In this document: positions 10,211 through 37,176 of the stretch, one piece after another | Position numbering within the stretch: the stretch's first letter is position 1 | Layout: each line of letters begins with the position of its first letter | Assembly (NCBI GenBank): GCA_045541215.1 | Contig: JAZQIR010000007.1 | Coordinates: 79,167-143,166, forward strand | Reading direction: 5' to 3' | DNA length: 64,000 nt | DNA from: Candidatus Nanosyncoccus sp. | GTDB lineage: Bacteria; Patescibacteriota; Saccharimonadia; Saccharimonadales; Saccharimonadaceae | Position numbers and translations under genes: made by a program | The notes under the pieces: generated by a model | What the model saw: the letters and a program-made list of their open reading frames with translations, nothing else | What the model was told of the DNA's origin: nothing | Databases searched by the model: none

Positions 10211-10287
10211 GGTCCGGTAGCTCAGTTGGTTAGAGCACGAGCCTCTTAAGCTTGGTGTCGTGGGTTCGAGCCCCACCCGGATCACCA
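10211..10287 (+). tRNA. tRNA-Lys (anticodon CTT)
   Basis: Cloverleaf GGTCCGG/CCGGATC, D stem GCTC/GAGC, anticodon loop CT-CTT-AA, T loop TTCGAGC, encoded CCA. Confidence 0.97.
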
Positions 10288-11906
10288 ACAGGGGAACCTG
10301 TGGAAAACTCAGGTTCGAAGATGAAATTAAATGGTGATTTATATCTGTAAATCACCCTTTTTTGTGCATCAATTTCGAGGTTCTTTAACCTATTTCTGAC
10401 CAAAATGTCCTTTTCGACGAGATCTCCTTTTTCTAACCTGTTAATTAGCGAATTTAGCGAGTTCGAAAACTTTTCGATGGTCATGCGCAATTTTTCAGGA
10501 TTCTTGATTTTGGCTTCAATTTGCTTGATTCTTTCGTCGATATTTACAACATCATTTTGCAAATCCGCCATGTCCTTTTTGAGCTTGTCTTTGACGGCTT
10601 TTGGCGATTCTTTGTCGAGTTCGGCGTACTTTTCCGCGAGGTCGTCAATCTTTCTTTGTTTCTGTGTTTTCTGGCCGAGTAGCTCGTGTTTCTCGACACT
10701 TAGCTCCTGCATCTTCTTGTTGGCATATTCGGTCATGTCGTCGACAAAGCTCGTAAAATCGTATTTCTGGCTGATACGGCCGAATTCCTCGTAGAGTTGG
10801 TCCATGATGACATGCATGCGCACGTTGTTATTTGGACGCGTACAGGCTTTGTTATGGCATCGATAATTGAGGTAATACGTACCAGAATGTCCGCGGTTTC
10901 TGGCCGGTATCATATAGTGGCCACATACCGAGCATTTGATTAGGTGGCGGAACGGCAGGAAGTATTTGCCATGCGTGGCTTTTTGATTCTCGTAGCAGGA
11001 AGATTGGATCGAGCCACGGTCTTTTCTAAACATTTTCTGAACCTGGTCGAATTCTTCTTCGGTTACCATTGGCTTGAAGTTTGGCGTGACTACGCGTAAG
11101 TCTACATAGTTGCGGCCTTGCTCTAAGATTCCGTAGTAGAACGGATCGTGGAAGATGCGGTTTGCGGTGCTTTCGCAGACGCCGTAGCTTCTGACGTGTT
11201 TGTTTCGGCGTGATAATTTTGTAGAGCGTTCCACGTTGTTCATCTTCCAGTAGCGGTAAACTTCCATTTGTGACGCGCCATTTAGAATCATTTGCCAGCC
11301 TTTCTGGATCATCTTGAAGTTCTTGTCTGGCTTGTAATAACCGGATACATCGTCTCTAATGTAGCCCCACTTCGGCATACCGCCGGACTTACCTTGTTCG
11401 AGGTTAGAATCGACACCGCGTTGCACGCTTTCAGACAAATGCTCTGAGTATTGTTTTGAAAGCGCAAAGAGCATGTTTAGCGTCAGCTTGCCGCTTGAAT
11501 CGTTATGGAATTCGAAAGTCGGGAAACGCAGGTCTTTGATGACTCCGTTATCGACCATATCGACAACCATTCCGGCTTCGAGCGAGTTACGTGAAAGGCG
11601 GTCTGGGTGCCAGGCGAGAATGGCATCGTATTTGCCTTTCTCGATATCTTTTAACATCTGCGAGAAAAGCGGACGATTGCCGGATTTCTTCGCGGATTTA
11701 GATTCTTGGATCGGTTCGCCAACTAGAAGCAAACCATGATTATTCGCATATTCTTTGCAATCTGCGATTTGGTCTGGTAATGATTTGGCTTGAGCTTCGG
11801 CATCTTCGGAAGATTTACGCACGTAGAGTACGTAGCGTAACGGTTTCTGAACTATGCCGCTACTCGCATTAATTAGTGCTCTATTCATAGTTTTAGAACA
11901 CGACAA
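10230..11906 (-). CDS. Large serine recombinase (resolvase, recombinase, Zn-ribbon and coiled-coil domains); last 18 codons are antisense tRNA
   Basis: YVRKSS catalytic motif, AWHPDRLSRN, FHDPFYYG, CSVCGH...YRCHNKAC; start may be ATG 11888. Confidence 0.95.
   Translation of the reverse strand: MSCSKTMNRALINASSGIVQKPLRYVLYVRKSSEDAEAQAKSLPDQIADCKEYANNHGLLLVGEPIQESKSAKKSGNRPLFSQMLKDIEKGKYDAILAWHPDRLSRNSLEAGMVVDMVDNGVIKDLRFPTFEFHNDSSGKLTLNMLFALSKQYSEHLSESVQRGVDSNLEQGKSGGMPKWGYIRDDVSGYYKPDKNFKMIQKGWQMILNGASQMEVYRYWKMNNVERSTKLSRRNKHVRSYGVCESTANRIFHDPFYYGILEQGRNYVDLRVVTPNFKPMVTEEEFDQVQKMFRKDRGSIQSSCYENQKATHGKYFLPFRHLIKCSVCGHYMIPARNRGHSGTYYLNYRCHNKACTRPNNNVRMHVIMDQLYEEFGRISQKYDFTSFVDDMTEYANKKMQELSVEKHELLGQKTQKQRKIDDLAEKYAELDKESPKAVKDKLKKDMADLQNDVVNIDERIKQIEAKIKNPEKLRMTIEKFSNSLNSLINRLEKGDLVEKDILVRNRLKNLEIDAQKRVIYRYKSPFNFIFEPEFSTGSPVGDPGGARTHDTKLKRLVL
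10333..10363 (+). terminator. Intrinsic terminator for the tRNA transcript, embedded antisense in the LSR gene
   Basis: GGTGATTTA-tatctg-TAAATCACC followed by CTTTTTT. Confidence 0.7.
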
Positions 11907-12048
11907 CTACTCCGTCGTCGCACACTCCTTTCTCTTTGTTGGATTCGCGTTCTGGCGAATCGTCTATGTCGTCTAATGCGCAAAGTAATTGCACTAGGTT
12001 TTTGACGGCTTCTTTTCGGTCTTCTACGACCGGCTGTTCCTTTTGCAT
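11893..12048 (-). CDS. Small 51-aa acidic ORF just upstream of the LSR (not in the ORF track)
   Basis: MQKEQPVVEDRKEAVKNLVQLLCALDDIDDSPERESNKEKGVCDDGVVVVF*; stop lies 4 nt before ATG 11888. Confidence 0.45.
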   Translation of the reverse strand: MQKEQPVVEDRKEAVKNLVQLLCALDDIDDSPERESNKEKGVCDDGVVVVF

Positions 12049-12303
12049 TTAAGGTACATACTTTCTTTCTCCACCCGAAGTGTTGCCATTCGGCAAGTAT
12101 CACTTGTAGTGCAGAATCTGCGCATAAAATATGAGGGGCTACCCCCTCTCGTCTTTCGAAAGGCGCAGAGCCTGCGCCGCAATTAACATAAGTATATTAC
12201 AAGAGTTCGAAAAAGACAAGCATAAGCGTTTTAGTAGAGTGGGGAGATATATGCTTAGCGGTTTGCATATCTGTTATTTGATGAGTTCGAACTTAAAGTG
12301 TTT

Positions 12304-13530
12304 TTATCTTAAAATGTTTGCCGAAGTGACTCGTTCTTTATGCTTATGAATATAGTTAGCCATGTTGTCATTATAATGATTAGTTTTTATCATAAAGTGT
12401 TCAGATTGTGTTTCGCCCGTACTTTCTAAGTTATTAGAATACACATCTCCAATTGAACCAAAAGAATAACTGATGTAATTTCGGTCGTTATCGTCTTGGA
12501 CAAAGCTCCCTACTTTTAATTCACGATCATTAAAGTAAATAATGCCGTATTCAAACATTTTGTCGTGATTTGCACATAGCCAGAAACCGTTGTCACCATC
12601 GGTCGCTCTTCGGTTCTTTTCTTTTATACTGTATGATTCATTATGATCAATGTCAGTAACGCGCTCTATGTGGGAGCCAATGATCATGTGTTCTATATCA
12701 CAGCCACAAATGTAGCAGCGTTTTTCCCCATACTTTTCTAGTAGATTGAAGTGGAAGAGTGGTGTATCTCGGCTTGTTTCACGAGTTATTGGAACTTTGA
12801 CTTTTCCGTGGTCTAATTCGATCGTTTCGCCAAAGTCAATTCCTTCTTCTTCAAGTATCTCGATTTGATCTTCTGAGAGCGATTTTGAACCATTATCGAC
12901 TACCTGATAAAAAACAATAACCTTATCTGAAATTGCGACAAGGGTAAGTGCAAGAATGAAAGATTCCATCGCGTTTGCCCCAAATGTTTTTCCGTAAATT
13001 GATATTTGGTTAATGCCACGGTCGTTACTTTCATCTACAAAATATGTCTGTTGATTATGAGTATTGCGTTCACTCGTTTTATTCCTGTAGGATTTTAAAT
13101 CATCATATGATTCAAAAGGAGTTATGTCGGCTAGTCCGAGTTCGTCTTCATTGAGAATTTTAATGCCCATGGTTAAAAAACATCTATAGAACATTTTCGA
13201 ATAATTTGTTCTATCGTTATGATCCGGATCTATAACAAAAATATTAAAATCCTTATTTGCGCCATCGAATTTTTTATAATCCACATACGCTGGAGACACA
13301 TACTGCATGAGACGAGAGTTGCGCCCCTCGTTTGCATGCTTTTTAGATAGACATACAAAATGCGTGAATTGCCCATTGCCTTCTCTAATCTTAATATAAC
13401 GTCCATCTCTTCGGTCTTCTGTCGTAGTTGTGTATTCATTCACTCCATACAATCTGGAGACTATTGCAGATATTACGGAGTCTGCTATCTCTGAGTGTGG
13501 CCCACGATTTGGCAATATTACTTCTATCAT
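12304..13530 (-). CDS. HNH endonuclease, probable restriction subunit
   Basis: C-terminal CYICGC..IGSHI..GDNGFWLCANHDKMFE; ATGA overlap with the MTase stop. Confidence 0.8.
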   Translation of the reverse strand: MIEVILPNRGPHSEIADSVISAIVSRLYGVNEYTTTTEDRRDGRYIKIREGNGQFTHFVCLSKKHANEGRNSRLMQYVSPAYVDYKKFDGANKDFNIFVIDPDHNDRTNYSKMFYRCFLTMGIKILNEDELGLADITPFESYDDLKSYRNKTSERNTHNQQTYFVDESNDRGINQISIYGKTFGANAMESFILALTLVAISDKVIVFYQVVDNGSKSLSEDQIEILEEEGIDFGETIELDHGKVKVPITRETSRDTPLFHFNLLEKYGEKRCYICGCDIEHMIIGSHIERVTDIDHNESYSIKEKNRRATDGDNGFWLCANHDKMFEYGIIYFNDRELKVGSFVQDDNDRNYISYSFGSIGDVYSNNLESTGETQSEHFMIKTNHYNDNMANYIHKHKERVTSANILR

Positions 13531-15398
13531 TCCTCTCTCCTTTTATAGTTAGTAACTAATATTTCTTTTCTTCCTTTTCTAGCGACTTTATTGTATTCTA
13601 TGACATTGAAATTATTATCTTTAATCCATTTATTTAGCAATGTATTATGTTTTCCATTATGCTCCAGCACGTTAGAAAGTATAAATTTGATACCTTTATC
13701 GTTGGCCTTATTGAGAAAAGCATAGAGCCGCTTTTCATCAGATTCATTCCAGCCATTAAACCCCCTTTTTCCATCATTATAGCTTCCGAGCGTAATGAGA
13801 TATGGTGGATCGCAATATAAGAATGTCCCATCCTCAAAATATTGCTCCATATTCTCAAAATCGCCAGAGCAGATAAGAAGATTCTGTTCTTGCATTCGTC
13901 GACAAAAACTGATTAATTTTGACAACATGATATCATTAAAGCCAGCAGGGCCGACTGGGTTATTATAGTCGTATGAAGAATTAAAGCGAATTTGCTGATT
14001 GAAACCATACATAATTAGCACGTATAACATTTTCAAATCACGCCTATCTAGCGGCGTAGTATTATATTTGTCGCGTAGTTTTAAGTATGCTTCTTTTGCG
14101 CCAGGTTCTAGCTTATATCTTTTTACGGTCCTAGTTATATACCTGACAAGTTCGGCGGTATCGGTGTTTTTAAAGCATTCTAAAAGTCTAGCTACCATAA
14201 AGTTATAGTCGTTGTAGATAATTTGTTCAGCCTCTATATTTGCTCCAACACTATAACCGCCGCCAAAAACATCTATAAAACGTTGGATGCTTTCATTTGG
14301 TAGGTTATCTTTTATGAAATCAACTAGATCATATTTGCCACCTTGGTAATTTAGCGGCGACGCATATTTTGCCTCTAGATATGGCTTTTTCTCAATAAAG
14401 AATAAATATTCGCAATGCTCGTCTTCGGAATATGTCTGATGGTTTCGGTATTTCTTGTATGGTATCTTTTTTAGGCAATATGTTTCTTCTTTACCATATC
14501 GTTTCAATGTATTTTCTATGAATTTTTTCGACATTAACCCGTCGGAACTGTAGCTAAGAATAATGTATTTAAAATCCGCTTTTGCAATAATGAAATCAAA
14601 AACCTGCTCTACTTCGCCTTGCCTTGAAAATGCAGAGGAAGTTTCAGAAGTATTTCTAAGGCCGCCTTTTCCGTTTATTGTAGGGTTATCATATTTAGCA
14701 ATGGTTTCTAGTAGATGGTATTGAACAGAATACTGATTCTTTGTGTATGGTGGATCGAGGTATAGAATATCGCCACTGATTTCGCAGATTAGCTCCTCAA
14801 TGGTTTCATTTCTTACTTCGCTTTTGCATACTGGGTTGGATGGAGTCGATTCAACATGAATAAACGGCATGCGTTTTACAGCCCTTGGATCCCATGTTTT
14901 AAGGTATGATCCATATACTCCGGCAATATTGGCCACTTTGGATGCGGATTCGATTAACGCCGCTAGAAGATAATAATATTCCTTGTCGTTGATCTTTTCA
15001 GTTTTATACCAACTCTCTATTTTTGTGCGAATAAAATCGATTCGCTTACCGTTTTCGGTAGAGAAATACATTCTGTTTCCACTTCCGCCATCAGAATATT
15101 CGTTGAATATAAATCCTTCAATACCTTCGTCAGTATCGTTGAAATATTTAAATGGATCTAGCCCCAATTTAGGGAAGGTCATGTCTGGAGTATTTAGTTT
15201 TGCCTGCGTAATCACATAGCTGTAATATTGAACATCGTTAGCTGCTATTCGAAATTTATCTTTAAAATAATCGCCAACGGCAGCAGTTCCACTAAAGGCG
15301 TCGCAGAATGTTAAGTTGGAGTCATTTAAAATCCCTTGCTGTTTTATAAAATCAGCAATCTCTGAAAGAAGGTCTGTTTTTGCTCCTATATACCTCAT
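13527..15398 (-). CDS. Tandem two-domain N6-adenine DNA methyltransferase (D12/FokI-like)
   Basis: Domain 1 MRYIGAK, DAFSGTAAV, YLDPPY; domain 2 SPLNYQGGK, DVFGGGYSV, YCDPPY. Confidence 0.92.
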   Translation of the reverse strand: MRYIGAKTDLLSEIADFIKQQGILNDSNLTFCDAFSGTAAVGDYFKDKFRIAANDVQYYSYVITQAKLNTPDMTFPKLGLDPFKYFNDTDEGIEGFIFNEYSDGGSGNRMYFSTENGKRIDFIRTKIESWYKTEKINDKEYYYLLAALIESASKVANIAGVYGSYLKTWDPRAVKRMPFIHVESTPSNPVCKSEVRNETIEELICEISGDILYLDPPYTKNQYSVQYHLLETIAKYDNPTINGKGGLRNTSETSSAFSRQGEVEQVFDFIIAKADFKYIILSYSSDGLMSKKFIENTLKRYGKEETYCLKKIPYKKYRNHQTYSEDEHCEYLFFIEKKPYLEAKYASPLNYQGGKYDLVDFIKDNLPNESIQRFIDVFGGGYSVGANIEAEQIIYNDYNFMVARLLECFKNTDTAELVRYITRTVKRYKLEPGAKEAYLKLRDKYNTTPLDRRDLKMLYVLIMYGFNQQIRFNSSYDYNNPVGPAGFNDIMLSKLISFCRRMQEQNLLICSGDFENMEQYFEDGTFLYCDPPYLITLGSYNDGKRGFNGWNESDEKRLYAFLNKANDKGIKFILSNVLEHNGKHNTLLNKWIKDNNFNVIEYNKVARKGRKEILVTNYKRREE

Positions 15399-15581
15399 CT
15401 ATTATTATTATACCACGAGAACACCTTAAAACGGCGTCGGCACCACAAGAAATATATCAATTTTGATATACTTTTCCACAATATTATACCGTTTCGTGTC
15501 AAGAAAAAAATTCACCTCTGTTTCTTGCGCAATAACTTTTAAAACCCGATTGCAATCAAGTGGATGCTATCTATTGACTAA

Positions 15582-16031
15582 TTACCAGAATGTTTTATTA
15601 GAATCGTGACCGCAATGCACGATATCTTCCGGCTCCGCCCAAAGCGAAAGCTTGTGTACGCGCCATTTTCCAATGAAGAACATCTGGACCATTACGTCGT
15701 TTACGTCACGGTTATTTAGTGCGCGTGGAATGTATGCAAGCGAGAAATGATACCAAGTGTCGTCTTCGCTGTCTAACCGTGCAAAAACGCGCTTACCGCG
15801 GCCTAAAAGACGCACATCAAAGCGTTGAGCTAGAGTTTCTAGGGAATAAGTCTTGAGCTCGTGAATCGCGTCGCGAACAGGGGAGTAGGTAAGCTCCATA
15901 CGTTCGAGCTTGTCATAATCACGCGAATTAAACTTGCCATTATGTTCAAGCATAAAGCTTTCTAGTTGCCGAGCGGTAACCAGTATCGGTTCGCCGGGCT
16001 TTACTTTTTTGAATGTGTGGCGTTTTGCCAT
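15582..16031 (-). CDS. Hypothetical element-backbone protein (149 aa)
   Basis: GAGG RBS; truncated paralog at 19060-19245. Confidence 0.75.
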   Translation of the reverse strand: MAKRHTFKKVKPGEPILVTARQLESFMLEHNGKFNSRDYDKLERMELTYSPVRDAIHELKTYSLETLAQRFDVRLLGRGKRVFARLDSEDDTWYHFSLAYIPRALNNRDVNDVMVQMFFIGKWRVHKLSLWAEPEDIVHCGHDSNKTFW

Positions 16032-16076
16032 AGTTTACCTCGTTTCTTTGAGGTTGCGCCTAATAGGCGGTGTGCT

Positions 16077-17645
16077 TTATTCGTTTGCAATGTTTTTTAT
16101 AAGCTGAATTTCTACTTTATATCCCAGCCCACTTAGTTGCCTATTGATATTCCTAAGTGTCACTTTACTGAAAAAAGGAATGTCAAATCGCTCAATTTTA
16201 CTGGTTATAATTGCAAAGATAACTTTTCTTTTTTTGTTTGAATCATTATGAAAATTTCCTCCAGTAATCTCTTCTGCTTTTCGCAAAAATGCCGGATCGT
16301 TTCGTATTAATTCGCCCGATACGTAGCCTTGGTTAAAAAGATGGCTAAGAGCTGAAGACCCAGTGTATTTTTTCACATGTATTAAGTCACCCTCTCGCGT
16401 TTGGACATCGCAAACTTCAATCTTACTATGGCTACTACCATAAGGTATATTTTCCCCATCGTAGCATTTTCCACCTAAAACATTTGCCAATTCCTTGTTA
16501 TATTCCGCTTCTCGTTCATGATGGTAATCTATAAAATCATGCTTCTTTGTTATATCTTCATATGATTTGTTAATTTGTTTACAAAAATCATTTGCTATTT
16601 CATACCATCTACCGTTTATCAGAAGAAACACTTTGTTATTGGATGTAATTTCTGCGTATAGACATTTATACGCATTCCATCGGTCAAGCGTTTTTGACTC
16701 ATCTTCTGCCGATATTGCTGATATTTTTAATCCCTTCAAGGACTCTAGAGAGATATTGTTGCCCAGTGCTTCAATGATATAAGCCTTTTCAATATCGTCA
16801 TATTTCTTTGCTCTCTTATTATCGCCAAACCTAAATTGATATACGTCTACATAATCTATGTAATCGGGAACTGCGGCCCAAACTTTATCTGTATTTGAAG
16901 GCTCTGATGAGTTTGTTGACAGTATTTGGATTAATCGATCATTCAAGGTTTTTGTTTCTTCTTTATCTTTAACATCCTGTATTTGATCGACCCAATCAAA
17001 ATCTTTTTTGTATTCATCGCTTTCATATGCTTCAATAATGTCGTTGGCAACATCAGATATGGTATGTATATTGCAATGAAGGCGCAATGATAATGATTCC
17101 GATCCGGCTGCCGTTGTTCCTAACTTCGTAGCCCATTTGGATTTTATTTTTCCAGTCAATCCTTTAATAAGATCTTGTTCTGAACTAATCCCAAATTCTG
17201 ACGCATTTGCCGTTTTTGCAAGCTGCTCTTTTGCATTTTTTGGATTGGACTCCAAAACTGTCTTAGAGAAATTCTTAACTTCATCGCTGTCAATAATATT
17301 TAATGCCGTTCTAAGTCCAAACCTTACGTCCATAGAATCGGTTTTTAGCAAATAGCGTCCAGATCCAAATGAAAAGGCTAGCTCTTCTTTGTTTTTGCCA
17401 ATATTCTTAACGATGACAACTAGCTTTGCCGAAGAGGTGAAATATGATTTCAATTTATCTTTATCTTGAATTTGGAAAAATTGTTTTAAATAACTCGGTT
17501 CTGCATGAAATGATTCTTCGCTATAAATTATCACGTTTTGATTTATTCGGCTAAATTGTTTTGCTCTATCTGACAATTCGTTCCCAATAAAAGAGCTCTT
17601 TATTCTGAAAGCGACTATCTTATTGATTGGGATTTCTTTGTCCAT
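16077..17645 (-). CDS. DUF6119/TIGR04141-like mobilome protein with a PD-(D/E)xK-like C-terminus
   Basis: FSFGSGRYLL, RFGLRTALN, IEVCD..LIHVKK..SSALSHLFNQGYVS. Confidence 0.8.
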   Translation of the reverse strand: MDKEIPINKIVAFRIKSSFIGNELSDRAKQFSRINQNVIIYSEESFHAEPSYLKQFFQIQDKDKLKSYFTSSAKLVVIVKNIGKNKEELAFSFGSGRYLLKTDSMDVRFGLRTALNIIDSDEVKNFSKTVLESNPKNAKEQLAKTANASEFGISSEQDLIKGLTGKIKSKWATKLGTTAAGSESLSLRLHCNIHTISDVANDIIEAYESDEYKKDFDWVDQIQDVKDKEETKTLNDRLIQILSTNSSEPSNTDKVWAAVPDYIDYVDVYQFRFGDNKRAKKYDDIEKAYIIEALGNNISLESLKGLKISAISAEDESKTLDRWNAYKCLYAEITSNNKVFLLINGRWYEIANDFCKQINKSYEDITKKHDFIDYHHEREAEYNKELANVLGGKCYDGENIPYGSSHSKIEVCDVQTREGDLIHVKKYTGSSALSHLFNQGYVSGELIRNDPAFLRKAEEITGGNFHNDSNKKRKVIFAIITSKIERFDIPFFSKVTLRNINRQLSGLGYKVEIQLIKNIANE

Positions 17646-17735
17646 TCATGGGCTCCTTTTATAGCCTAATTATATCATAGAAAGCAATAATTCTTAAATT
17701 TGTCAAACTGCTTATGGCTACCTTCGTTATTGATT

Positions 17736-17986
17736 CATTGACATTGTAATTCATTTATTTTCTCCATTGTCATTGTTTTAGGCCTTTCTGGCTCCAGGTA
17801 AGCTAGAAATCTCTAAAAGTTCGAATCTCTTTGCCTGTATATGTATACCTCAGAACTCGCATGGCATCAGAATAGGGTAGTCTTTCTTAGGTATAACCTT
17901 GATCTTGGCAGTGTATTCGGGGTGGTCAATACACCAGTCTACAACCATGCAAAGCCGAGCAACAACGTCTGGTCGCCCCTCACCAA
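17736..17986 (-). repeat. P arm copy 1: CATTG box, displaced LSR C-terminal tail (17850-17985) and core
   Basis: Near-identical to 18633-18883; minus frame GEGRPDVVARLCMVVDWCIDHPEYTAKIKVIPKKDYPILMPCEF*. Confidence 0.85.
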
Positions 17987-18026
17987 ATGAAGAAATTATT
18001 GAATCCGCCGAAAGGCGGTGTTTTTA
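17987..18026 (+). terminator. B'-type arm with plus-strand terminator
   Basis: ATGAAGAAATTATTGAAT then CCGCC-gaaa-GGCGG and TGTTTTTT; recurs at 21223 and 31886. Confidence 0.8.
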
Positions 18027-18042
18027 TTTATTTGGGAGTTAT

Positions 18043-18582
18043 TTATGCGCAGTTCTTTTTATGCGCTTTGAGCTTTTTCATTGCCCAGTCGTAGTGGGAA
18101 GATAGACAACTCACAAAATACGAGCCAAGCACTGAACCGCCAACCCAAGGATACATACCTTTTGTAAATAATTGCTCTTCGCTAAGACTTTCGGCTAGTT
18201 TCATGACGTCTTTATGTGATTTTTCAAACATTTTTCTTGCGTCTTCGAGCGAAGTCTTTTGATGTTTCTTCCAGTATTCGACGTTCATATCGCCGTAAGT
18301 CTTCCAAGTGTATGGTTCTGGCAAGAATGGCGCATTACCGCCTTTATTCAGATTCGTATCTACGAATTCAAGTAGCATTCGGTGCCATTCATATAGGTGT
18401 ACCCAAATATCGCGTAGATTCTTGTCACGTCCCCAGTGGCGTTCTTTCTTCGATGGATCGCCGGAGAAATCGAATTCGGTATTCATTTCTTTCTCGCTCA
18501 TTGAATCAGCCATTTCAATCAGCTTGGCGTAGTATTCTTCGCCAGCCTTTAATAAGTCCTGTTTGTTGCGTGGTCTTGGCAT
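18043..18582 (-). CDS. ClbS/DfsB-family four-helix bundle protein (DUF1706-like)
   Basis: MPRP.NK.DLL, HLYEWH, PY.WK.Y, SSHYDWA.KK. Confidence 0.8.
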   Translation of the reverse strand: MPRPRNKQDLLKAGEEYYAKLIEMADSMSEKEMNTEFDFSGDPSKKERHWGRDKNLRDIWVHLYEWHRMLLEFVDTNLNKGGNAPFLPEPYTWKTYGDMNVEYWKKHQKTSLEDARKMFEKSHKDVMKLAESLSEEQLFTKGMYPWVGGSVLGSYFVSCLSSHYDWAMKKLKAHKKNCA

Positions 18583-18632
18583 AAATAAGTCCTTGTTTAC
18601 TACTTTAATTATATCATCGGGTGCAAGTCTGC

Positions 18633-18883
18633 CATTGACATTGTATTTCTTTTATTTTCTCCATTGTCGTTGTTTTAAGCCTCTCCAGCTCCAGCTAAGC
18701 TAAAAATCTCTAAAAGTTCGAATCTCTTTGCCTGTATATGTATACCTCAGAATTCGCACGGCATCAGAATAGGGTAATCCTTTTTAGGTATAACCTTGAT
18801 CTTGGCTGTGTATTCGGGGTGGTCAATGCACCAGTCCACGACCATGCAAAGCCGAATAAGTATGTCTACTCGCCCCTCACCAA
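18633..18883 (-). repeat. P arm copy 2: CATTG box, LSR C-terminal tail (18747-18882) and core; intact P-P' junction
   Basis: Reads ...FSTGSPVG|EGRVDILIRLCMVVDWCIDHPEY...MPCEF* across the core. Confidence 0.85.
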
Positions 18884-19073
18884 CAGGGGAACCTGTGGAA
18901 AACGAAGGGCGGAAGATGAAATTAAATGGTGATTTATATCTGTAAATCACCTTTTTTATGCATCAATTTCGAGGTTCTTTAACCTATTTCGTACCAAAAT
19001 GTCCTTTTCGCTCGCCCCTTGGGACGCGAATAGCCGGAGGCTAACGAGATCTCCTTTTTCTAACCTGTTAATT
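18884..19073 (-). pseudogene. Remnant of an LSR gene 3' end with a 33-bp insertion (19011-19043)
   Basis: Aligns to 10289-10446; fused at 19073 to the backbone-gene fragment. Confidence 0.85.
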
Positions 19074-19245
19074 CGTGAATCGCGTCATGAACTGGCGAAT
19101 CTTTCAGTTCCATACGCTCGAACTTATCGTAATCGCGTGAATTGAATCTGCCATTATGCTCGAGCATGAAACTTTCGAGCTCACGAGCAGTAACCGGTAT
19201 TGGCTCGCCGGGTTTAGCTTTCTTGAATTTGCGACGTTTCATCAT
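19060..19245 (-). pseudogene. N-terminal fragment of the 149-aa backbone protein
   Basis: MMKRRKFKKAKPGEPIPVTARELESFMLEHNG matches 15582-16031; cut by the deletion junction. Confidence 0.85.
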
Positions 19246-19298
19246 TATCTCCTTTCTTTTAAGGAGTGCGCCCTAGGCGGTATATTCTATTTAATGAA

Positions 19299-19766
19299 TT
19301 ATATTTTGATATTGTTTGAAGGTTTTCTATACTTCGGCCAGTGTTGTAAACAGGTTGGTATCATTGTTCTGACGCCGCTTGGGTCTAATACTTTTTCTTT
19401 TATCGTTCTAGCTACTCTTAAGGCAAGCGTAGCGTTCTTGCGTGGGCTTCGGCCATAATCTAGTATATTGAACCCTGAAAAAGAATTTGTGTTTTTACCG
19501 TCTGAGAAAATAAAGGAATATTCTTCGCCATCTAGAACAGTATTTGGCTCAAGGCATCCTGGTATACAAAATAACTCTGAATGTTCCTTAATAATACTTT
19601 TTATTTTATTGATCTCGCTAGTCGGGATAGTATGAAGATACTTCTTGTCGTGAAACCAAGTGATCACATTGTTTTCTTTGTCGCTTGTAACTGTAATACG
19701 GAAAATAGATTCTGGAGCGTCAGGAGAAAGCCACGTAGGAGATATCCTATATTCAAATATTGTCAT
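19299..19766 (-). CDS. Hypothetical protein (155 aa)
   Basis: ATGA overlap with the upstream TfoX gene. Confidence 0.7.
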   Translation of the reverse strand: MTIFEYRISPTWLSPDAPESIFRITVTSDKENNVITWFHDKKYLHTIPTSEINKIKSIIKEHSELFCIPGCLEPNTVLDGEEYSFIFSDGKNTNSFSGFNILDYGRSPRKNATLALRVARTIKEKVLDPSGVRTMIPTCLQHWPKYRKPSNNIKI

Positions 19767-20056: not shown

Positions 20057-20057
20057 A

Positions 20058-27050: not shown

Positions 27051-27103
27051 ATGCACGTAATATATAGCAATTAAAACATCACTGATTATGATATAATTTA
27101 CTT

Positions 27104-27754: not shown

Positions 27755-27757
27755 ATG

Positions 27758-27787
27758 AAAAAGCACGGATATAAACCCGTGCTTTTT
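27758..27787. terminator. Bidirectional intrinsic terminator
   Basis: AAAAAGCACGG-N8-CCGTGCTTTTT between convergent genes. Confidence 0.8.
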
Positions 27788-27802
27788 GTTAATCTCTAGC
27801 CC

Positions 27803-29947
27803 TTAGGCAAAGTAGTGTGGCATTCTCAAGCCGTCCGGATCGACACCAACAGAATGCTGAATGATTGGGTGCGTATAATGTGCCGAATCGAACCCGAAGT
27901 TGATAGGTACAAGCCAAGGGCTGAATACGCGGACGACCTTAATATCCGATTTTCTATCGGACAGATCCACTGTTACAAGTTGCAGGTGTTCATTATAGAA
28001 CCAATTAAGGCTCTTTACTACCATGCTCTCCTGAATGTGGCTCTCGGAGATCATATTTTTCCAAAGCCAATGAAGCTTGTCGGCATTTTCCTTGAAGTAG
28101 TAAACCTTTCCATGATCTGCTGGCGTAGAAACACTAAACGGATCTATTGGTGTCATATCTGGATAACGCAAAGCTAACAGAAGATTGTATTCCGCTTCCT
28201 GCGCAGACTTCAGAATCGCATCATCTACGGATTTTTTATCGATCGTAGCCGCTGCTCCGCTTACGAAACATGGATATTCATCGCCGACAATTACCGTCTC
28301 AAAGACCATTCCGAAATCACTTGGAATTTGAAGAACAATCAATTGGCGTTTTTGCTTCAAGAAGTGAGTAATACGCTTTCTGACATGAATCGGGAGGATC
28401 CTTTCATCGACTCGATACGGAGATTCCTGAGAAAACCAGTTACACATCAACGCATCGCGTTCAATTAGTTCGATGACGGCTCGTTTCTTGGCTTCGTCAA
28501 AGTCAAAATGAGCTGCAATGCCAGATGAATTGCCATAGTAAATGCGGTTTTTGTCATCTTTCTGACCATAATAAACTAAATCCGACGGAACATAAATTTC
28601 AGAGCCGTCATAATTAGTCCCCAATGTCCAGTTGATAACAAGATCGTTCGTAAAGAACTTTACCCCGCACTTTTTAGCTTGTTCTTCCGTAAGCGGAAAA
28701 TACACTTTTGGGTCAAGCCATTTACCTGGCACTTGATTTGCTGAGCCGTGGAAGTCCACTCGCACCTGACTAGATTGGTAGCGTTCGTAGCCCTCAATAG
28801 TCGCCTTGAAAACGGCGTCCGCATAAGATGGACTAGTCGCTCCAGCATATTGAATGTTGCCACTTTCATCTAGATACGTAGTTGTAGCTCCAAAGAATGA
28901 ACCATCACTATCAAATACGCGTGTCCATACGTCTTTAACTGGATGATCTGCGCCAACACGCTCCTCAACGAAACGAATCTTATTAAACTGCTCCGTTTCG
29001 AAGCCTGCTGGGTAACCTACCGGAATTGCGATTATGGGCCAAATATTACCAGAGAGCTCAAGCTCTTGCTTCAATGGTCCATCCTGAACACCACCCATCT
29101 CGCAAGCACCAAGACCTTGCTCGGCACAATAGAGGCTAATGTTTTCAGCAACATGACCTACTTCAATGAGCGTCAAGCGATAGCCACGATTAGCGTACTT
29201 GTATGGCTGACGCTCAAGATCTGCCGCAATGACGATTTGCACAGAAGAGCCAAAAGGCATTTCTTCCTGGTTAAAACAGTATTTCAGTTGCTCAACATCG
29301 ACCTCGTCACTGAAGCAGACAAGACGATTTTGTTCGGCGTCATACTCGTAGTAACCAGGTTCAAGTCCATCTTGTGGTTTTTCGATTAGCACATAAATCC
29401 TAAGCGGATAGAGTGCTCCGCCACTCGGTACCGAATGATCAGGGATCGAGTAGGCGAAGTGGCAAATACTACCGATTTGATTAACTGTCATCTTCCTCTC
29501 TGAAAAAGAGCGACAAGAGCGTCGATTTTCCCTGACCCAGGATAGCGCCGAAGATGTGTCGCAATCAAACTGGATAACCTCACCAGACTTAATCGGCAAC
29601 CTTTCACTTTTAGTGTAGGCTTCGACCTCGTCTTGAGTAAGATTCGAGTTGATAGCGGACGGGTAGTTACTGATACGATGAAAATGCATGAACTGATGCC
29701 TTGAATCAACAATAAGTTCCATATCCTCTAGTTCAACGAGAATTTCCATCACTTCATCTTTTGGTAAGCCAGAAGACTCAATGATAGAGGAAACATTCGT
29801 ATATCCATTGCAAAAGCCCAAAATCTTCCAAACTTCATCAGCCATATCGTGACCGATGTCTATCTGGTTCTCGCGATGGAGGAATCTTATCCCTCCTTTA
29901 TATGGAACCGCTGAAACCACTAAGATTGGGATAAAATTGATGTCCAT
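27803..29947 (-). CDS. Fused wHTH/RRE-like + SagB/ThcOx dehydrogenase + YcaO cyclodehydratase
   Basis: RRSCRSF, PSGGALYP, RGYRLTLIEVGHVAENI (SagB); KATIEGYERY, NSSGIAAH, ELIERDA, C-terminal MPHYFA (YcaO). Confidence 0.9.
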   Translation of the reverse strand: MDINFIPILVVSAVPYKGGIRFLHRENQIDIGHDMADEVWKILGFCNGYTNVSSIIESSGLPKDEVMEILVELEDMELIVDSRHQFMHFHRISNYPSAINSNLTQDEVEAYTKSERLPIKSGEVIQFDCDTSSALSWVRENRRSCRSFSERKMTVNQIGSICHFAYSIPDHSVPSGGALYPLRIYVLIEKPQDGLEPGYYEYDAEQNRLVCFSDEVDVEQLKYCFNQEEMPFGSSVQIVIAADLERQPYKYANRGYRLTLIEVGHVAENISLYCAEQGLGACEMGGVQDGPLKQELELSGNIWPIIAIPVGYPAGFETEQFNKIRFVEERVGADHPVKDVWTRVFDSDGSFFGATTTYLDESGNIQYAGATSPSYADAVFKATIEGYERYQSSQVRVDFHGSANQVPGKWLDPKVYFPLTEEQAKKCGVKFFTNDLVINWTLGTNYDGSEIYVPSDLVYYGQKDDKNRIYYGNSSGIAAHFDFDEAKKRAVIELIERDALMCNWFSQESPYRVDERILPIHVRKRITHFLKQKRQLIVLQIPSDFGMVFETVIVGDEYPCFVSGAAATIDKKSVDDAILKSAQEAEYNLLLALRYPDMTPIDPFSVSTPADHGKVYYFKENADKLHWLWKNMISESHIQESMVVKSLNWFYNEHLQLVTVDLSDRKSDIKVVRVFSPWLVPINFGFDSAHYTHPIIQHSVGVDPDGLRMPHYFA

Positions 29948-30044
29948 CTAAAACACCTTCCTTTCTAAAGACTAAAGTTTTTAAGGTCCCAGAGACAATT
30001 CTCCATTATATTATAACATTTTTATAGAGTTTAAGCAAGAAAGA

Positions 30045-30068
30045 GGCCCGGAATCTAGGTTCCGGGCC
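30045..30068 (-). terminator. Hairpin/terminator after the RiPP precursor
   Basis: GGCCCGGAA-N6-TTCCGGGCC followed on the minus strand by TCTTTCTT. Confidence 0.65.
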
Positions 30069-30136
30069 AGGGGCGAAGGTTTGGCATGTGTGAGGCCAAA
30101 CATTCTTGCATATCTTATGTTTGGTGAGTGGTGGAA

Positions 30137-30322
30137 TTACTTTCCGCCGCCGCCGCAGCCTCCGCCGCCGCCTCCGTTACAACCGGAACCGCCGCCGCAA
30201 GAGCCGCCACCACCACCGCAGCCACCGCCACAACCAGAGCCACATCCGGCTCCGCCGCAGTTACCAGCCGCAGCAACATTCACATCGTAAGGCGTACGCT
30301 TAACGTCAAGAAGCTCCTTCAT
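30137..30322 (-). CDS. Gly/Cys-rich RiPP precursor (microcin B17-like azole peptide)
   Basis: About 21-aa leader, then CGGAGCGSGCGGGCGGGGGSCGGGSGCNGGGGGGCGGGGK (7 Cys, 3 Ser); adjacent to YcaO. Confidence 0.85.
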   Translation of the reverse strand: MKELLDVKRTPYDVNVAAAGNCGGAGCGSGCGGGCGGGGGSCGGGSGCNGGGGGGCGGGGK

Positions 30323-30540
30323 AACGAATCACCGTCCTTCCCTGGAATAATGAGTGTATATATAGACAACAAAACAGCCCGTCGCGCCCCAAAGGAGCCA
30401 CACATATACGACAAACTGAGATGTTTGCCAAAACATAAGAAAAATACTAAAAATATCCAACAATTTTCCACTTGTCTTGTTAGTATTATACCATGTTTCT
30501 CTAAATATGCAATATTTAGTATTAGGTTTTATTCTATTAA

Positions 30541-30631
30541 TCATTGTTTTAAGCCCTCACCAACAGGAGAACTCGTGGAAAACTCAGGTTCGAAAACTTT
30601 TCTAGGCCCAAGCGCAATTTTTCAGGGTTCT
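30541..30631. repeat. att-like junction: half CATTG box, core, internally deleted LSR 3' remnant
   Basis: TCATTGTTTTAAGCC|CTCACCAACAGG; right part matches 10289-10319 then 10461-10504 via GTTCGAA microhomology. Confidence 0.8.
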
Positions 30632-30638
30632 GCATATG

Positions 30639-31541
30639 CTATTTGCAGATTTTTTCTTGACACTCCTCATCCGCCTGCTCGATCTCTATTACAGAATGTG
30701 AAATATTGTGTTTCTTCAAAACTTCCTTTACAGTATTCTTAATAATCTTGTCGTATTTTTTGACTACAACATGGAGCGTGGCATGATTTTCTTCGCCATT
30801 TATACTCCTAACGTGGATATGATGAATATCTACAACACCCTTAACATGTTTGATATCTATCTTAATTTCCTCTAAATCTATATCTTTTGGCGTAATCTCC
30901 AAAAATATCTTTACGATTTCGCGTAGATTTTTAGCTGCTTCGATTAAGATGAATGTCGCGACACCCAGTGAGAGAATTGGGTCTATAACTGCGATTCCTG
31001 TGAATTTCATTACAATAGAACCAATTAGCACTACTGCCCAGCCTAGTACATCTTCCAGCATATGGAGATTTACCGATTTTTGGTTTAATGAATCGCCATC
31101 ACGTGTGACATAAGTCGCGATGCTATTTATGACTAAGCCAATAATCGCAAAGATAATCATGCCATCGTAATTTATTTCGACAGGGTCTGCGATACGCTGA
31201 ATTGCTTCATAAATCACGAATGAAGAGCCGACGAGTAGAATTACCGTTGTAATAATGCTCCCAACTAATGAATACCGTGCGTAACCGTAAGTATGCTTCG
31301 CGTCTGGTCCTTTCTTACTTTTTCGTTCCAGGCCATATGCAATGCCGATACTTAAAGCATCCCCTAGATCATGGACTGCATCGGAAGTGATAGCGATGCT
31401 TCCAGTAATAATGCCACATATGAACTCAAATATTGAAAAGTTGGCATTTAGAAGAAATGCTATTAATATATTTTTCTCGGTTTTATATGCATGATGATGT
31501 GAATGATGCGCATGCTCCGAGCCGTGAAAAGATTTACTCAT
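30639..31541 (-). CDS. Cation diffusion facilitator (CzcD-like) transporter
   Basis: His-rich N-terminus, SDAVHDLGD, HMLEDVLGW. Confidence 0.93.
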   Translation of the reverse strand: MSKSFHGSEHAHHSHHHAYKTEKNILIAFLLNANFSIFEFICGIITGSIAITSDAVHDLGDALSIGIAYGLERKSKKGPDAKHTYGYARYSLVGSIITTVILLVGSSFVIYEAIQRIADPVEINYDGMIIFAIIGLVINSIATYVTRDGDSLNQKSVNLHMLEDVLGWAVVLIGSIVMKFTGIAVIDPILSLGVATFILIEAAKNLREIVKIFLEITPKDIDLEEIKIDIKHVKGVVDIHHIHVRSINGEENHATLHVVVKKYDKIIKNTVKEVLKKHNISHSVIEIEQADEECQEKICK

Positions 31542-31661
31542 AAAAATCCTTGGAGTATTAATGGGTTATCAAAATTTAGAGAATAAAGACTAATTTCCGT
31601 ATCGCGCTAAGGACATAATATTGATACGTACTTAAAGATATTATATCATAAAAGTCTTGTA

Positions 31662-31924
31662 ATTGACATTGTAGGAATAAGTTATTCCTTTACATTGGTT
31701 CAATGTTCATTTCCTTGTGATTCCTGATCAGAACGTAACATCTACTAAAACAGGGTAGTCCTTCTTCGTTATGACCTTTGTCTTAGGGTTGTATTCTGGA
31801 TGCTCAAACATCCAATCGATCACGTTATAGAGGCGGAGCATTATCTCGTCTGCTGCATCAATAAGTTCTCTGCAACGTTCACCAAATGAAGAAATTATTG
31901 AACCCGCCGCAAAGCGGCGTTTTT
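31662..31924. repeat. Divergent P arm (LSR tail 31728-31883), core and B' terminator
   Basis: Minus frame GERCRELIDAADEIMLRLYNVIDWMFEHPEYNPKTKVITKKDYPVLVDVTF*; CACCAAATGAAGAAATTATTGAA; CGCCGC-aaa-GCGGCG-TTTTT. Confidence 0.8.
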
Positions 31925-33089: not shown

Positions 33090-33150
33090 CATTGACATTG
33101 ACATTGACATTGTTATTCTTTTATTTTTTTCATTGTCATTGTCTTAAGCT
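33090..33150. repeat. CATTG box with an expanded left half (4 CATTG units)
   Basis: CATTGACATTGACATTGACATTGT...CATTGTCATTGTCTTAAGCT. Confidence 0.8.
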
Positions 33151-33151
33151 T

Positions 33152-33670
33152 CTACGGCTCCAATAGGTTATTTAGCCAATCATCCAGCTTTTTAATTCCC
33201 TCTTCCGTCCGCGCCATGGATCCAGTCATATTAAACCCATCGCCTTTCAAAATTGCACCCGACATGAGAGATTTCAAAGTTTCATAAGTCCCAGCATTAC
33301 CAGATCCTTCATGCGTATTAAACGGAACCACCGTCCTGCCCGAAAAATCATGTTTTTCAATAAAACTATAGACCACCATCGGCAAATCTTCCCACCAAAT
33401 TGGATAGCCAAAGAAAATTGTATCATAGCCAGCGATATCTACATCTTCAACATACTCTGGACGCGCACCAATCTTTTGCTCATCAGCCGCACGCTCTATC
33501 GCCTCCTGATAACTCAAAGGATATTTATTTTTTGGCTCAATCTTAAACTCATCAGCACCAGTTTTCGCTACAATCTCTTTTGCTAATAATTCCGTATTGC
33601 CAACCTCTACAGTGCCGACATTATAATTTTCCCCCGCATGTGAAAAATAAATAACTAAAATTTTATCCAT
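33152..33670 (-). CDS. Flavodoxin
   Basis: ILVIYFSHAGEN..GNT, FFGYPIWW, FNTHEGSG; start moved to ATG 33670. Confidence 0.9.
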   Translation of the reverse strand: MDKILVIYFSHAGENYNVGTVEVGNTELLAKEIVAKTGADEFKIEPKNKYPLSYQEAIERAADEQKIGARPEYVEDVDIAGYDTIFFGYPIWWEDLPMVVYSFIEKHDFSGRTVVPFNTHEGSGNAGTYETLKSLMSGAILKGDGFNMTGSMARTEEGIKKLDDWLNNLLEP

Positions 33671-35776: not shown

Positions 35777-37123
35777 GTGCAAAAGAAAGATAAGATTACC
35801 TATACCGCTATAATTGTTGTTTTGGCTATAACTCTAGGCGTATTGTGGTTCTTGATTATAGATACGATAAACTCTAACTATATTACTAGTGAGGGTAGTG
35901 CGCCAGCAATGAATGGTGACGGCAGTTCATCATCTGCATCCTACTCGGCAGTTAAAGAGATTACGTCGGACGAGAATATCACAAGTGGCGAATTCTTATC
36001 ATCTAACGCCGACGAGAACGCCATTTCCGTATCTGGAGATATTACAGCCACTTTATCTGGAATTACAGTCACCAAAACTGGTGATTCGAATGGTGGCGAC
36101 AACACGAGCTTTTACGGTACTAATTCTGCAATTATTGCAAAAGGTGGTGCTAATTTAACTATTAAGGATGCCGACATCACAACTGACGCAACTGGTGCTA
36201 ACGGTGTGTTTTCTTATGGCGGTTCAGCTACAACCAACAACTCATCATCTGATGGAACAACGGTGAATATTTCCGATTCGACCATCACAACTAGTAAAGA
36301 TAATTCCGGTGGTATTATGACTACTGGTGGTGGCATAATGAATGCTGAGAATCTTACTATTACTACTGCAGGCACTTCTAGTGCGGCAATCCGTTCGGAT
36401 CGTGGTGGCGGCACAGTGACAGTAGATAAAGGTACTTACAAGACTAATGGTAAGGGTTCTCCAGTTATCTATTCTACAGCAGACATTACTGTGAAGAATG
36501 CCACATTAATTGCTACCGCTTCTGAGGGCGCGATTATCGAGGGCAAGAATAGCATTACGCTTGAGAATGTAACTTTGACCGACACCAATAGCTCGCTCAA
36601 CGGTCAATCTACCACTTACAAGAACATTTTCCTCTATCAGTCTATGAGTGGTGACGCGGCAACTGGCAAGGCTGTCTTTACCGCCAAAAACTCAACTATC
36701 ACGACCAATAAAGGCGATAGCTTCTATGTAACAAATACCACTGCAGAAATTAACCTTGAGAATAACACAATCACAAACAACGACAATACTGGCAATTTCT
36801 TAAGAATCCAAAAAGATTCTTGGGGCAAATCTGGTAGCAATGGTGGTACGGTTACACTTAATATGACCAACCAAAAAGCTACCGGCAACATAGTTGTAGA
36901 TTCAATTTCTAAACTCACCATGAATCTTGTTAACGGTTCATCATTTAGCGGTGCCATTAATAGTGATAATGCTGGTGAAGTCGAGCTCGTCTTAGATGAT
37001 TCTAGCTCGATAACTTTAACAGGCGATACTTATGTTAAGTCATTAACAAATGCCGATGCAACCAATAGCAATATTCATACAAATGGCTATAAGCTTTACG
37101 TAAATGGTACTTTACTAAAGTAA
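35777..37123 (+). CDS. Membrane-anchored beta-helix-like Thr/Gly/Asn-rich protein
   Basis: GTG start 35777 with AGGAGG RBS; repeated ITT.G..S motifs. Confidence 0.7.
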   Translation: MQKKDKITYTAIIVVLAITLGVLWFLIIDTINSNYITSEGSAPAMNGDGSSSSASYSAVKEITSDENITSGEFLSSNADENAISVSGDITATLSGITVTKTGDSNGGDNTSFYGTNSAIIAKGGANLTIKDADITTDATGANGVFSYGGSATTNNSSSDGTTVNISDSTITTSKDNSGGIMTTGGGIMNAENLTITTAGTSSAAIRSDRGGGTVTVDKGTYKTNGKGSPVIYSTADITVKNATLIATASEGAIIEGKNSITLENVTLTDTNSSLNGQSTTYKNIFLYQSMSGDAATGKAVFTAKNSTITTNKGDSFYVTNTTAEINLENNTITNNDNTGNFLRIQKDSWGKSGSNGGTVTLNMTNQKATGNIVVDSISKLTMNLVNGSSFSGAINSDNAGEVELVLDDSSSITLTGDTYVKSLTNADATNSNIHTNGYKLYVNGTLLK

Positions 37124-37128
37124 ACAAC

Positions 37129-37159
37129 AAAGCCAGTTGCATAACGCGACTGGCTTTTT
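37129..37159 (+). terminator. Intrinsic terminator
   Basis: AAAGCCAGT-N11-ACTGGCTTT-TT. Confidence 0.8.
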
Positions 37160-37161
37160 GT

Positions 37162-37176
37162 CTCACCATATGAAGG
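37162..37176. repeat. Possible distal att core
   Basis: CTCACCATATGAAGG is 14/15 identical to CTCACCAAATGAAGG at 21215. Confidence 0.5.

Follow-up and report, generated by a model that had tools for sequence, protein, structure and literature searches.

The 64,000-nucleotide stretch of DNA analysed here (the window, to whose coordinates all positions refer) comes from a Candidatus Saccharibacteria (Nanosyncoccus-like) genome of 0.88 Mb, 98.8% complete and assembled from a ruminant gut metagenome, and it holds an array of integrated elements behind its sole tRNA gene, a tRNA-Lys(CTT) on the plus strand at 10211-10287 (ARAGORN; Rfam tRNA, 66.6 bits). The last six bases of this gene plus one more form the sequence TCACCAA at 10282-10288, the core at which the tRNA 3' end meets the 3' end of a large serine recombinase (LSR) gene read from the other strand. 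In its integrated form the LSR has 558 residues (10230-11906, minus strand), overlaps the tRNA gene by 58 nt, carries the resolvase catalytic (Pfam Resolvase PF00239, 9e-23), recombinase (Recombinase PF07508, 5e-8) and zinc-ribbon (Zn_ribbon_recom PF13408, 3e-6) domains of its class, and has its serine motif, VRKSS, at about residues 29-33. It is the only LSR of the genome and, as an earlier note on this DNA had read from the letters, the single intact recombinase of the array. The array extends from 10289 to 37168, about 26.9 kb or some 3% of the host genome. We set its end there because a sister species (genome G032) has at the same place, behind the tRNA, only an 85-nt scar of recombinase gene end, one membrane-protein gene and then TspO, 1.1 kb behind the tRNA, the window counterpart of which lies at 38942-39454. 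The segment 37162-37266 (plus strand), which consists of CTCACCA, a T, an ATGAAGG stub and the 3' fragment of a cyclophilin-like gene (37198-37266, matching 21318-21386), is the probable true right end. Genome G017 was also considered as an empty site and was rejected, since it holds there two 63-nt units and a further small unit with a TfoX_N gene.

The first unit next to the tRNA (unit 1, or E1; 10289-17979, minus strand) is an intact element of 7.7 kb. Behind the LSR lie a conserved upstream region (11857-12294), an HNH endonuclease gene (12304-13530) and a fused double D12 methyltransferase gene (13527-15398), which together look like a type II restriction-modification pair, then a gene for a 149-aa protein (15582-16031), a TIGR04141/DUF6119 gene (16077-17645) and a module at 17736-17979 that we call the P arm. 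The same backbone recurs in genomes G004 and G011 and in metagenome loci, in the order LSR, about 400 nt of upstream sequence, variable cargo, 149-aa gene, variable cargo and P arm. The 149-aa backbone protein could not be assigned to any family of Pfam, NCBIfam or PADLOC, its close relatives number only 290 and its AlphaFold model has a pLDDT of 50, so that we dropped it as a recognisable excision factor or regulator; family scans and the model of this protein revealed no directionality factor among the element proteins. A phage or plasmid nature of the LSR element was likewise set aside, since a search of the viral contig collection found no relative of the LSR.

The bare 7-mer TCACCAA is present in 26 copies in the window against 9 expected, most of them unrelated to the array, and we discarded it as evidence in itself. 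Because it is so common, the case rests on the flanking arms, which we defined from the printed flanks, a repeat search and BLAST of the arms against the 880-kb genome; the last of these found no arm in the host genome outside the array. The arms fall into four kinds: B is the end of the tRNA gene (3'); B' consists of ATGAAG with a hairpin terminator behind it; P' is the recombinase gene's 3' end; and P is a module of about 250 nt. They occur in all four combinations around the shared core TCACCA(A), here abbreviated O. Long homologous arms flank each of the eight cores that the earlier note had listed, and the arms it assigned to them were borne out. The junction at 10282 is B-O-P' (attL), that at 17980 P-O-B' (attR) and that at 18877 P-O-P', with P 90% identical over 251 nt and P' 93% over 135 nt. 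Farther out, 21216 has the last 19 nt of P followed by O-B'; 27038 has 50 nt of P, a mutated core (TCGCCAA) and ATGAAG only; 30557 is O-P' with P' 92% identical over 38 nt and the outer part of P on its left; 31879 is O-B' with a divergent P arm on its left, in which the recombinase tail discussed below is still recognisable; and 37162 reads CTCACCA-T-ATGAAGG. Repeats and alignment disclosed a ninth, degenerate junction at 21094 (ttgtCCC-TCACCAT with a foreign-type hairpin terminator), which begins a gene-less 'empty' unit of 115 nt (21094-21215) that closes in the last 19 nt of P at 21216. A P arm had been proposed on the left of every downstream core; the two left arms that looked odd are P arms that have suffered deletions. 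At 30557 the outer P is joined to the core through an internal deletion of about 190 nt (UBA3749 has a complete P arm behind the same gene cluster as precedes 30557), and at 37162 the P arm is wholly deleted, a full P being kept after the homologous 479-aa gene in G089, G021 and G106. On the other side of the cores the window contains three full B' arms and two stubs (the earlier note had spoken of three to four downstream arms), where canonical integration of attP into attB leaves one. The hairpins of the three full B' arms differ by paired changes, so that these arms stem from different lineages.

What the P arm is became apparent from the reading frame of the LSR. In the integrated state this frame runs across the core for another 18 residues, read from the tRNA in antisense, and stops there; when it is joined to the P arm, as it would be in a circle, it continues into GEGRPDVVARLCMVVDWCIDHPEYTAKIKVIPKKDYPILMPCEF to give a protein of 584 residues with a 44-residue tail. 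Of about 70 P arms, drawn from many species, most keep the tail frame, with mostly conservative changes. The frame thus runs via the core into P, so that attP sits inside the recombinase gene itself and integration swaps a conserved 44-residue tail for antisense tRNA. An orphan tail expressed alone at attR sites was considered and rejected, there being no in-frame upstream start codon. Read from the sequence, attP is partly dyad-symmetric (GGTCGCCCC...GGGGAACC) around the CC of the core. Over its outer 70 nt, P carries paired CCATTG(A/T)CATTG boxes around a ribosome-binding site and the start of a short open reading frame (ORF), MTMEKIKEIQCQ; copies are at 17728-17796, 18625-18693, 20341-20409 and 33094-33162, and the piece also stands alone upstream of both Zn_ribbon_2 genes of the array, so that by its sequence it looks like a shared operator or promoter module. 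We also considered the P arm as a structured RNA or riboswitch and ruled this out, as it has no Rfam match and its inner 150 nt code for the LSR tail.

A core with the first full B' arm (B'a: ATGAAG and hairpin terminator; 17980-18042, plus strand), an arm like that which closes the single island of G004, opens unit 2 (17987-18876, minus strand), which consists of B'a, a DUF1706 gene (18043-18582; Pfam DUF1706, 4e-52) and a full P arm (18633-18876). The attP-like core with P on its left and P' on its right (18877-18883, plus strand) follows, and the block from DUF1706 through P-O-P' to an LSR stub is also present in G011 at 91% identity. Unit 3 (18884-21215, minus strand), as judged by self-comparison, Pfam, repeats and alignment, is a miniaturised element: P' with an LSR stub (18884-19080), a stub of the 149-aa gene (19073-19281), a 155-aa ORF, a TfoX_N gene (19763-20056), a Zn_ribbon_2 gene (20058-20315), an outer P (20341-20409) and a 133-aa ORF on the plus strand. 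The TfoX_N-domain gene (97 aa) is among the commonest cargo of these elements and often stands directly behind B', as in G017, G097 and a metagenome joint of 18029 to 19785, which deserves notice because the phylum is naturally competent. The next core with its arm (21216-21261; B'b 21223-21261) opens unit 4, whose minus-strand genes code for a cyclophilin-like protein (21262-21753), an alpha/beta hydrolase (21754-22794), a deaminase (22899-23384) and a protein of 1147 aa (23423-26866), followed by the 50 nt of P (26986-27037); the 1147-aa gene also lies within an island in G007.

Unit 5, together with the mutated core and ATGAAG stub before it, occupies 27038-30556 and holds a DUF2268 gene (27104-27754, plus strand), a YcaO-dehydrogenase fusion gene (27803-29947, minus strand) with small upstream ORFs, and an outer P fused to the next core. 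The fusion, of YcaO with a nitroreductase-type dehydrogenase, is 714 aa long and the upstream ORFs have 61 and 71 aa (27803-30544); these genes are likely a thiazole/oxazole-type peptide cluster, which UBA3749 and locus L145 share at 92-93%. The joint P-O-ATGAAG|ATGCA seen at 27038 recurs in at least four other assemblies. Unit 6 with its leading core (30557-31878, minus strand) is a second miniaturised element, with a P' stub (30564-30631) that has an internal LSR deletion, a cation-efflux gene (30639-31541) and the divergent P arm (about 31728-31878), the tail peptide of which reads GERCRELIDAADEIMLRLYNVIDWMFEHPEYNPKTKVITKKDYPVLVDVTF. Units 3 and 6 have both kept P' and P and lost nearly all of the LSR. 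Unit 7 follows the core at 31879 and its arm B'c (31886-31922), reaches to 37161, and contains flavodoxin_5 and PNPOx genes, a Zn_ribbon_2 gene (a duplicate of 20053-20352), an outer P (33094-33162), a flavodoxin_4 gene, a histidine kinase, a response regulator and a 479-aa protein on the plus strand. Several general features recorded in the earlier note stood up throughout: the units measure 0.9-7.7 kb, the cargo lies mostly on the minus strand and so points towards the tRNA, and the TGnTATAAT boxes, of which the minus strand has ten and the plus strand one, indicate that cargo genes have promoters of their own. Most units open with a terminator, and most lack a recombinase and are nevertheless bounded by cores.

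This arrangement is one instance of a pattern common in the genus. With DUF1706 plus P arm of unit 2 as a probe, 60 of the 101 species sampled gave matches; roughly 40 of the 101 matched in the P arm, and at least 13 species carry two or more P arms. Of 131 species only 8 have a complete or nearly complete cognate LSR (at least 88% identity), and more distant LSR subfamilies occur in other species of the genus. The named genomes that match these patterns are Candidatus Saccharibacteria and Ca. Nanosyncoccus from the guts of sheep, goat, deer and buffalo. Among the approximately 70 P-core junctions surveyed, the right arm was a B'-type terminator in many variants, a full P' (about 10) or a truncated or other sequence. 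All complete LSR genes with readable context have the tRNA arm or another non-P sequence across the core and none has a P arm there; at P-O-P' junctions with room to judge, a broken LSR with a stub of 7-55 codons lies behind the core in nine of nine. Because complete LSRs never face P and P-O-P' always precedes an LSR stub, it would seem from these sequences that new elements arrive next to the tRNA and older ones decay farther out. A second LSR subfamily (49-56% identical), found at L022 (G007), L052 (G025) and L179, uses the same core with a different P' (GACCGAGATTTCTCGGTCAAACG), and at L179 its element lies in tandem directly behind a type-1 element. Besides these, small units of 63-81 nt start right after a core, contain a hairpin and finish with 15-25 nt that repeat the tRNA 3' end and with the core, each thereby recreating a B-O half-site. 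They are present at L030 (G017; 19740-19900, minus strand), L053 (G031), L022 (G007; 18059-18120), L119, L143 and L183, are sometimes in tandem, flank the B'-DUF1706-P unit of G031 on both sides, and are probably what a different element family has left behind at this site.

Between and within species the site is found in different states of occupation. G004 and the metagenome locus L189 have one-element islands with the same arms, G032 is near-empty with its 85-nt P' scar, and conspecific strains in gut metagenomes (runs X25-X33) lack the cargo of unit 1 (12156-17467). One conspecific strain lacks exactly 26941-30637, that is, unit 5 and arm remnants of both of its neighbours. Units 4-7 are present in conspecific strains at a depth like that of the flanks, and 5.6-kb contigs from such strains in two independent runs pass straight through 37003-41000. 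In the public read data no run contains the whole array, and the best ones mix relatives. Alternative joints do appear in metagenome contigs, where excision and strain difference give the same picture. The surroundings of the tRNA are repeatedly rearranged across the genus: relative to the genes of the left flank (4700-10050) the array is inverted in L031 (G021) and L049 (G106), and in L032 (G012) the only gene flipped is a CmpB-like one. A degenerate 5' fragment of tRNA-Lys stands 91 nt upstream of the real gene at 10079-10170 (GGTCCGGTAGCTCAGTTGG, an insert, AGCACGAGCCTCT), preceded by a box, TGCTATAAT; it may be the relic of an older tRNA copy or part of a tRNA leader.

Considering all of this, we think it somewhat better than an even chance that accretion of elements at the tRNA, their subsequent decay and homologous exchange among them best explain the array. 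The locus would be a hotspot where small (about 5-9 kb) integrative elements of rumen Saccharibacteria accumulate. The LSR of each element would recombine its own attP (P-TCACCAA-P') with an attB made of the last bases of tRNA-Lys and the terminator behind it, and in doing so would have its 44-residue tail cut off; the excised circle and P-O-P' junctions would be the only places where the tail is regained. Newcomers would enter by the tRNA and push older elements outward, where deletions would remove the LSR and shorten the arms of these older elements. Homologous recombination would then remodel the array through the 250-nt P arm, the LSR 3' end, the 149-aa gene and the cargo genes, among which DUF1706, TfoX_N, cyclophilin-like and Zn_ribbon_2 genes could serve as stretches of homology. 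Such exchange might take place both within and between species, probably after natural transformation, and blocks that bear a junction would bring foreign B' arms with them. The host genome has a recA gene (found by motif), and natural competence has been shown in Saccharibacteria (PMC10633639).

Two homologous routes might lead to the order seen from 10282 to 21222. In the first, a circle would integrate homologously via a cargo gene, giving B-O-B'-gene-P-O-P'-element, after which a new element would enter at the intact attB. In the second, replacement during transformation, with crossovers in the tRNA or the LSR and in a shared gene, would give the same result. Several cargo genes are indeed known in both settings, beside B' and beside P, and because both routes recombine inside a shared gene, a chimeric gene is expected. 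The DUF1706 gene of unit 2 has this appearance: its 5' 150 nt are 99% identical to the cargo copy in G011 against 85% to the flank copy there, and in its middle the flank copy is the closer one, with 98% identity where the cargo copy has 95%, so that the gene is a mosaic of the flank and cargo types. The P arms are mosaic as well, all four combinations of two nearby variants (PD/VD with VVA/ILI) being found. Multiple B' arms, then, can arise through homologous recombination alone. What was observed is the anatomy, distribution, mosaicism and strain-level variability of the array; from these we infer in which order events took place, what the tail does and by which route elements are transferred.

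Several points weigh against this account. Canonical recombination of attP with attB cannot by itself yield P-O-P' or more than one B' arm, and the homologous routes that we propose to fill this gap are plausible candidates. Exchange within the P arm, moreover, gives the same products as exchange at the core, the two being inseparable by sequence. B'-gene-P units with exact cores on both sides are found three times in the window and again in G017, G031 and UBA3749. Also, the DUF2268 unit has kept its left boundary in at least five assemblies while having three different right neighbours. Exchange at the level of the core would neatly explain both the latter observation and the recurring B'-gene-P units. 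Finally, all the genomes compared are short-read metagenome assemblies.

The strongest of the other explanations is a milder form of the model in the earlier note. Units without an LSR would be mobilised in trans by the single LSR, perhaps with a directionality factor, acting on the internal junctions in the manner proposed for pseudo-SCC (staphylococcal cassette chromosome) or cis-mobilisable elements; we consider this possible but rather unlikely. If unit 1 were excised, attB (B-O-B'a) would come to lie in direct repeat with the attP-like site at 18877; as LSRs ordinarily act, recombination of the two could free unit 2 as a circle with a P-O-B' junction, and the reverse reaction with attL would insert the circle by the tRNA and regenerate attB. 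Such a cycle predicts exactly the order B-O-P'[E1]P-O-B'a-gene-P-O-P'[E3]P-O-B'b, and the arms at 10282, 17980, 18877, 21216 (where P is only 19 nt) and 31879 are full or nearly so. P-O-P' is common, at about 10 of the 70 surveyed junctions, and the element at the tRNA is apparently the youngest. CcrAB of SCC is an LSR pair with relaxed site choice; typical LSRs, however, do not pair attL or attR with attP or attB. The circles of B', gene and P that the earlier note envisaged have a counterpart in units that recur in other genomes, B'-TfoX_N-P (600 nt) in G017 and B'-DUF1706-P in G031, both directly behind the tRNA, and a 5-kb B'-X-P unit in UBA3749. G017 and G031 lack the cognate LSR, as do most array-bearing genomes, and B' is not fixed to the moving unit. 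In most genomes the DUF1706 homology starts at the stop codon, just after B', and what stands to the left of the gene varies between the 149-aa gene, TfoX_N, some other gene and a terminator of a different kind; for the cyclophilin-hydrolase block, similarity begins only at 21307 (G011) or 21251 (G106). The proposal that B' travels with the cargo is thus contradicted. Four of the sites (27038, 30557, 37162 and 21094) have degenerated, and no directionality factor was recognised, the 149-aa protein being without a family and poorly folded in its model.

The wider claim of the earlier note, that the array is integron-like, can be kept in part. An LSR-built array of several units does lie at the 3' end of tRNA-Lys, and it is right that IntI is absent: among the 30 ORFs across 7326-41324, Pfam scans recognised a single recombinase, which belongs to the serine type. 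The array, however, fails as an integron on every defining feature tested. Its units are not promoterless attC cassettes, since they have the cargo-strand TGnTATAAT boxes and terminators already described and P codes for a protein tail, and they have no fixed boundaries, homology starting after B'. Modules are also reshuffled without cores. In UBA3749 the cyclophilin-like, TfoX_N, DUF1706, DUF2268 and YcaO cluster genes are contiguous, in another order and with no cores between them. Shared blocks span cores in the window, G011 and G097, and the strain-level indel of 26941-30637 is not core-bounded. The arms form a continuum of truncation (P of 250, 184, 162, 107, 50, 19 and 0 nt; P' of 160, 38 and 8 nt; B' full, 12 and 6 nt), and several sites would appear, from what is left of them, too short or mutated to function. 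It seems improbable to us that the array is a working LSR-based exchange platform, an integron analogue in candidate phyla radiation (CPR) bacteria in which core-bounded promoter-gene-terminator units would be cut out as P-O-B' circles, reinserted at the tRNA with regeneration of attB and stacked there, the whole being switched by the tail regained on excision.

Quite improbable is that the contig merges arrays of co-occurring strains or species, with some adjacencies, above all B'a-DUF1706-P-O-P', present in no single cell. In favour of it, the window was assembled from short metagenomic reads, gut metagenomes hold the element modules in great numbers and in highly varied combinations, a mosaic DUF1706 would likewise result if a strand switch had occurred within a gene held in common, the array is whole in no public run, and one contig with the DUF6119 gene of E1 departs from the window at 17795. 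The repeats of the window, however, are only 77-93% alike and so would not collapse in a de Bruijn graph; independent contigs from conspecific strains confirm 37003-41000, and units 4-7 are there at a depth like that of the flanks; both halves of the disputed adjacency are found in G011; and similar B'-X-P units occur in independent assemblies. Least credible of all is that P arm and core are the target of another system, such as a tyrosine recombinase or an uptake or recombination signal linked to competence, with the LSR as only one user. The 63-81-nt units and the second LSR subfamily do use the same core, paired CATTG boxes stand in outer P and at cargo promoters, and good conservation is also seen in orphan P arms; but the coding sequence of the LSR tail fully accounts for the inner 150 nt of P, P has no Rfam match and Pfam scans found no second recombinase gene in the array.

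Viewed as accretion, decay and exchange around one tRNA gene, the array looks more like SCC and the ssrA island arrays of Dehalococcoides than like an integron. With SCC/SCCmec at orfX (rlmH) it shares LSR-mediated insertion at the 3' end of a conserved gene, short target repeats between units, accessory and defence cargo and, as in ccr-less pseudo-SCC, units without a recombinase that are thought to be moved in trans; nine junctions and one LSR amount to an array of this type. Unlike SCC, it has one LSR in place of the CcrA/CcrB pair, a tRNA target, a core of 6-7 bp, repeated B' arms and a CPR host. The LSR scores 64.6 bits against the NCBIfam CcrB model, the cut-off of which is 900, no second recombinase for a CcrA/CcrB or CcrC type is present, and by curated models it falls in neither the SCC nor the Dehalococcoides family.

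In Dehalococcoides, too, an analogy of the ssrA islands with SCC has been discussed, and a serine integrase of about 540 aa is encoded on the reverse strand by attL with its 3' end overlapping the RNA gene (PMC3146451), the same placement as we observe here. The authors considered that the integrase is perhaps complete only on the circle or behind a neighbouring island, and proposed that integrase-less islands are cis-mobilisable, their means of transfer being unknown (PMC3146451). Both systems form tandem islands behind a small stable-RNA gene in a small genome. They differ in the repeat, 20 bp of ssrA there and 6-7 bp here, and in the integration module, which there has six genes including a second, small serine recombinase (DsiB, DsiA, RecF-like, ParB-like, Mom-like and large primase-like), whereas the backbone here is the LSR, its region of about 400 nt and the 149-aa protein. 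The C-termini of DsiB are reported to be divergent, whereas the displaced tail of the present LSR is strongly conserved, and repeated B' arms are not described for the Dehalococcoides islands.

Other systems are alike in single respects. Elements of the ICESt1/ICESt3 type in streptococci also pile up at one site through site-specific recombination, deleted derivatives (cis-mobilisable elements, CIMEs) keep their att sites and are mobilisable in cis, and competent hosts add homologous exchange; these have tyrosine integrases, long identical cores and attL/attR as ordinary substrates, whereas such pairs are normally forbidden to a serine recombinase. With integrons the array has in common mostly single-function units in one orientation, a fixed insertion point and the newest unit apparently nearest to it. 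It differs from them in having no IntI, no attI/Pc and no folded attC, in the promoters and terminators of the units, in their unfixed internal boundaries, and in a repeated right arm that is the coding end of a recombinase gene. In the integration-dependent switches of temperate mycobacteriophages attP lies within a gene and integration alters the C-terminus of the protein, so that there as here the integrated and excised states encode different C-termini. In the phages this concerns the repressor and the tyrosine integrase, with degradation tags, and here, to judge from the reading frames, it would concern the serine recombinase itself.

Full-text searches of the literature found no description of serine-recombinase islands in Saccharibacteria, and to our knowledge few mobile elements have been described for these and other CPR bacteria with their tiny genomes. 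The present array is an LSR island array widespread in a CPR genus, and it differs from known ones in its backbone, its conserved displaced tail and its repeated B' arms. The element family is spread through a genus of the ruminant gut and carries restriction-modification, YcaO peptide cluster, metal efflux and TfoX-like genes. Since conspecific strains differ in this array, it is one of the chief sources of their accessory genes. The split recombinase gene offers a possible on/off logic for integration, and the repeated B' arms raise the question of what the LSR does with hybrid sites. Genetics of Saccharibacteria has only just begun (PMC10633639), and an endogenous LSR with attP and attB defined from sequence at a conserved tRNA gene would be a potential integration tool for these organisms.

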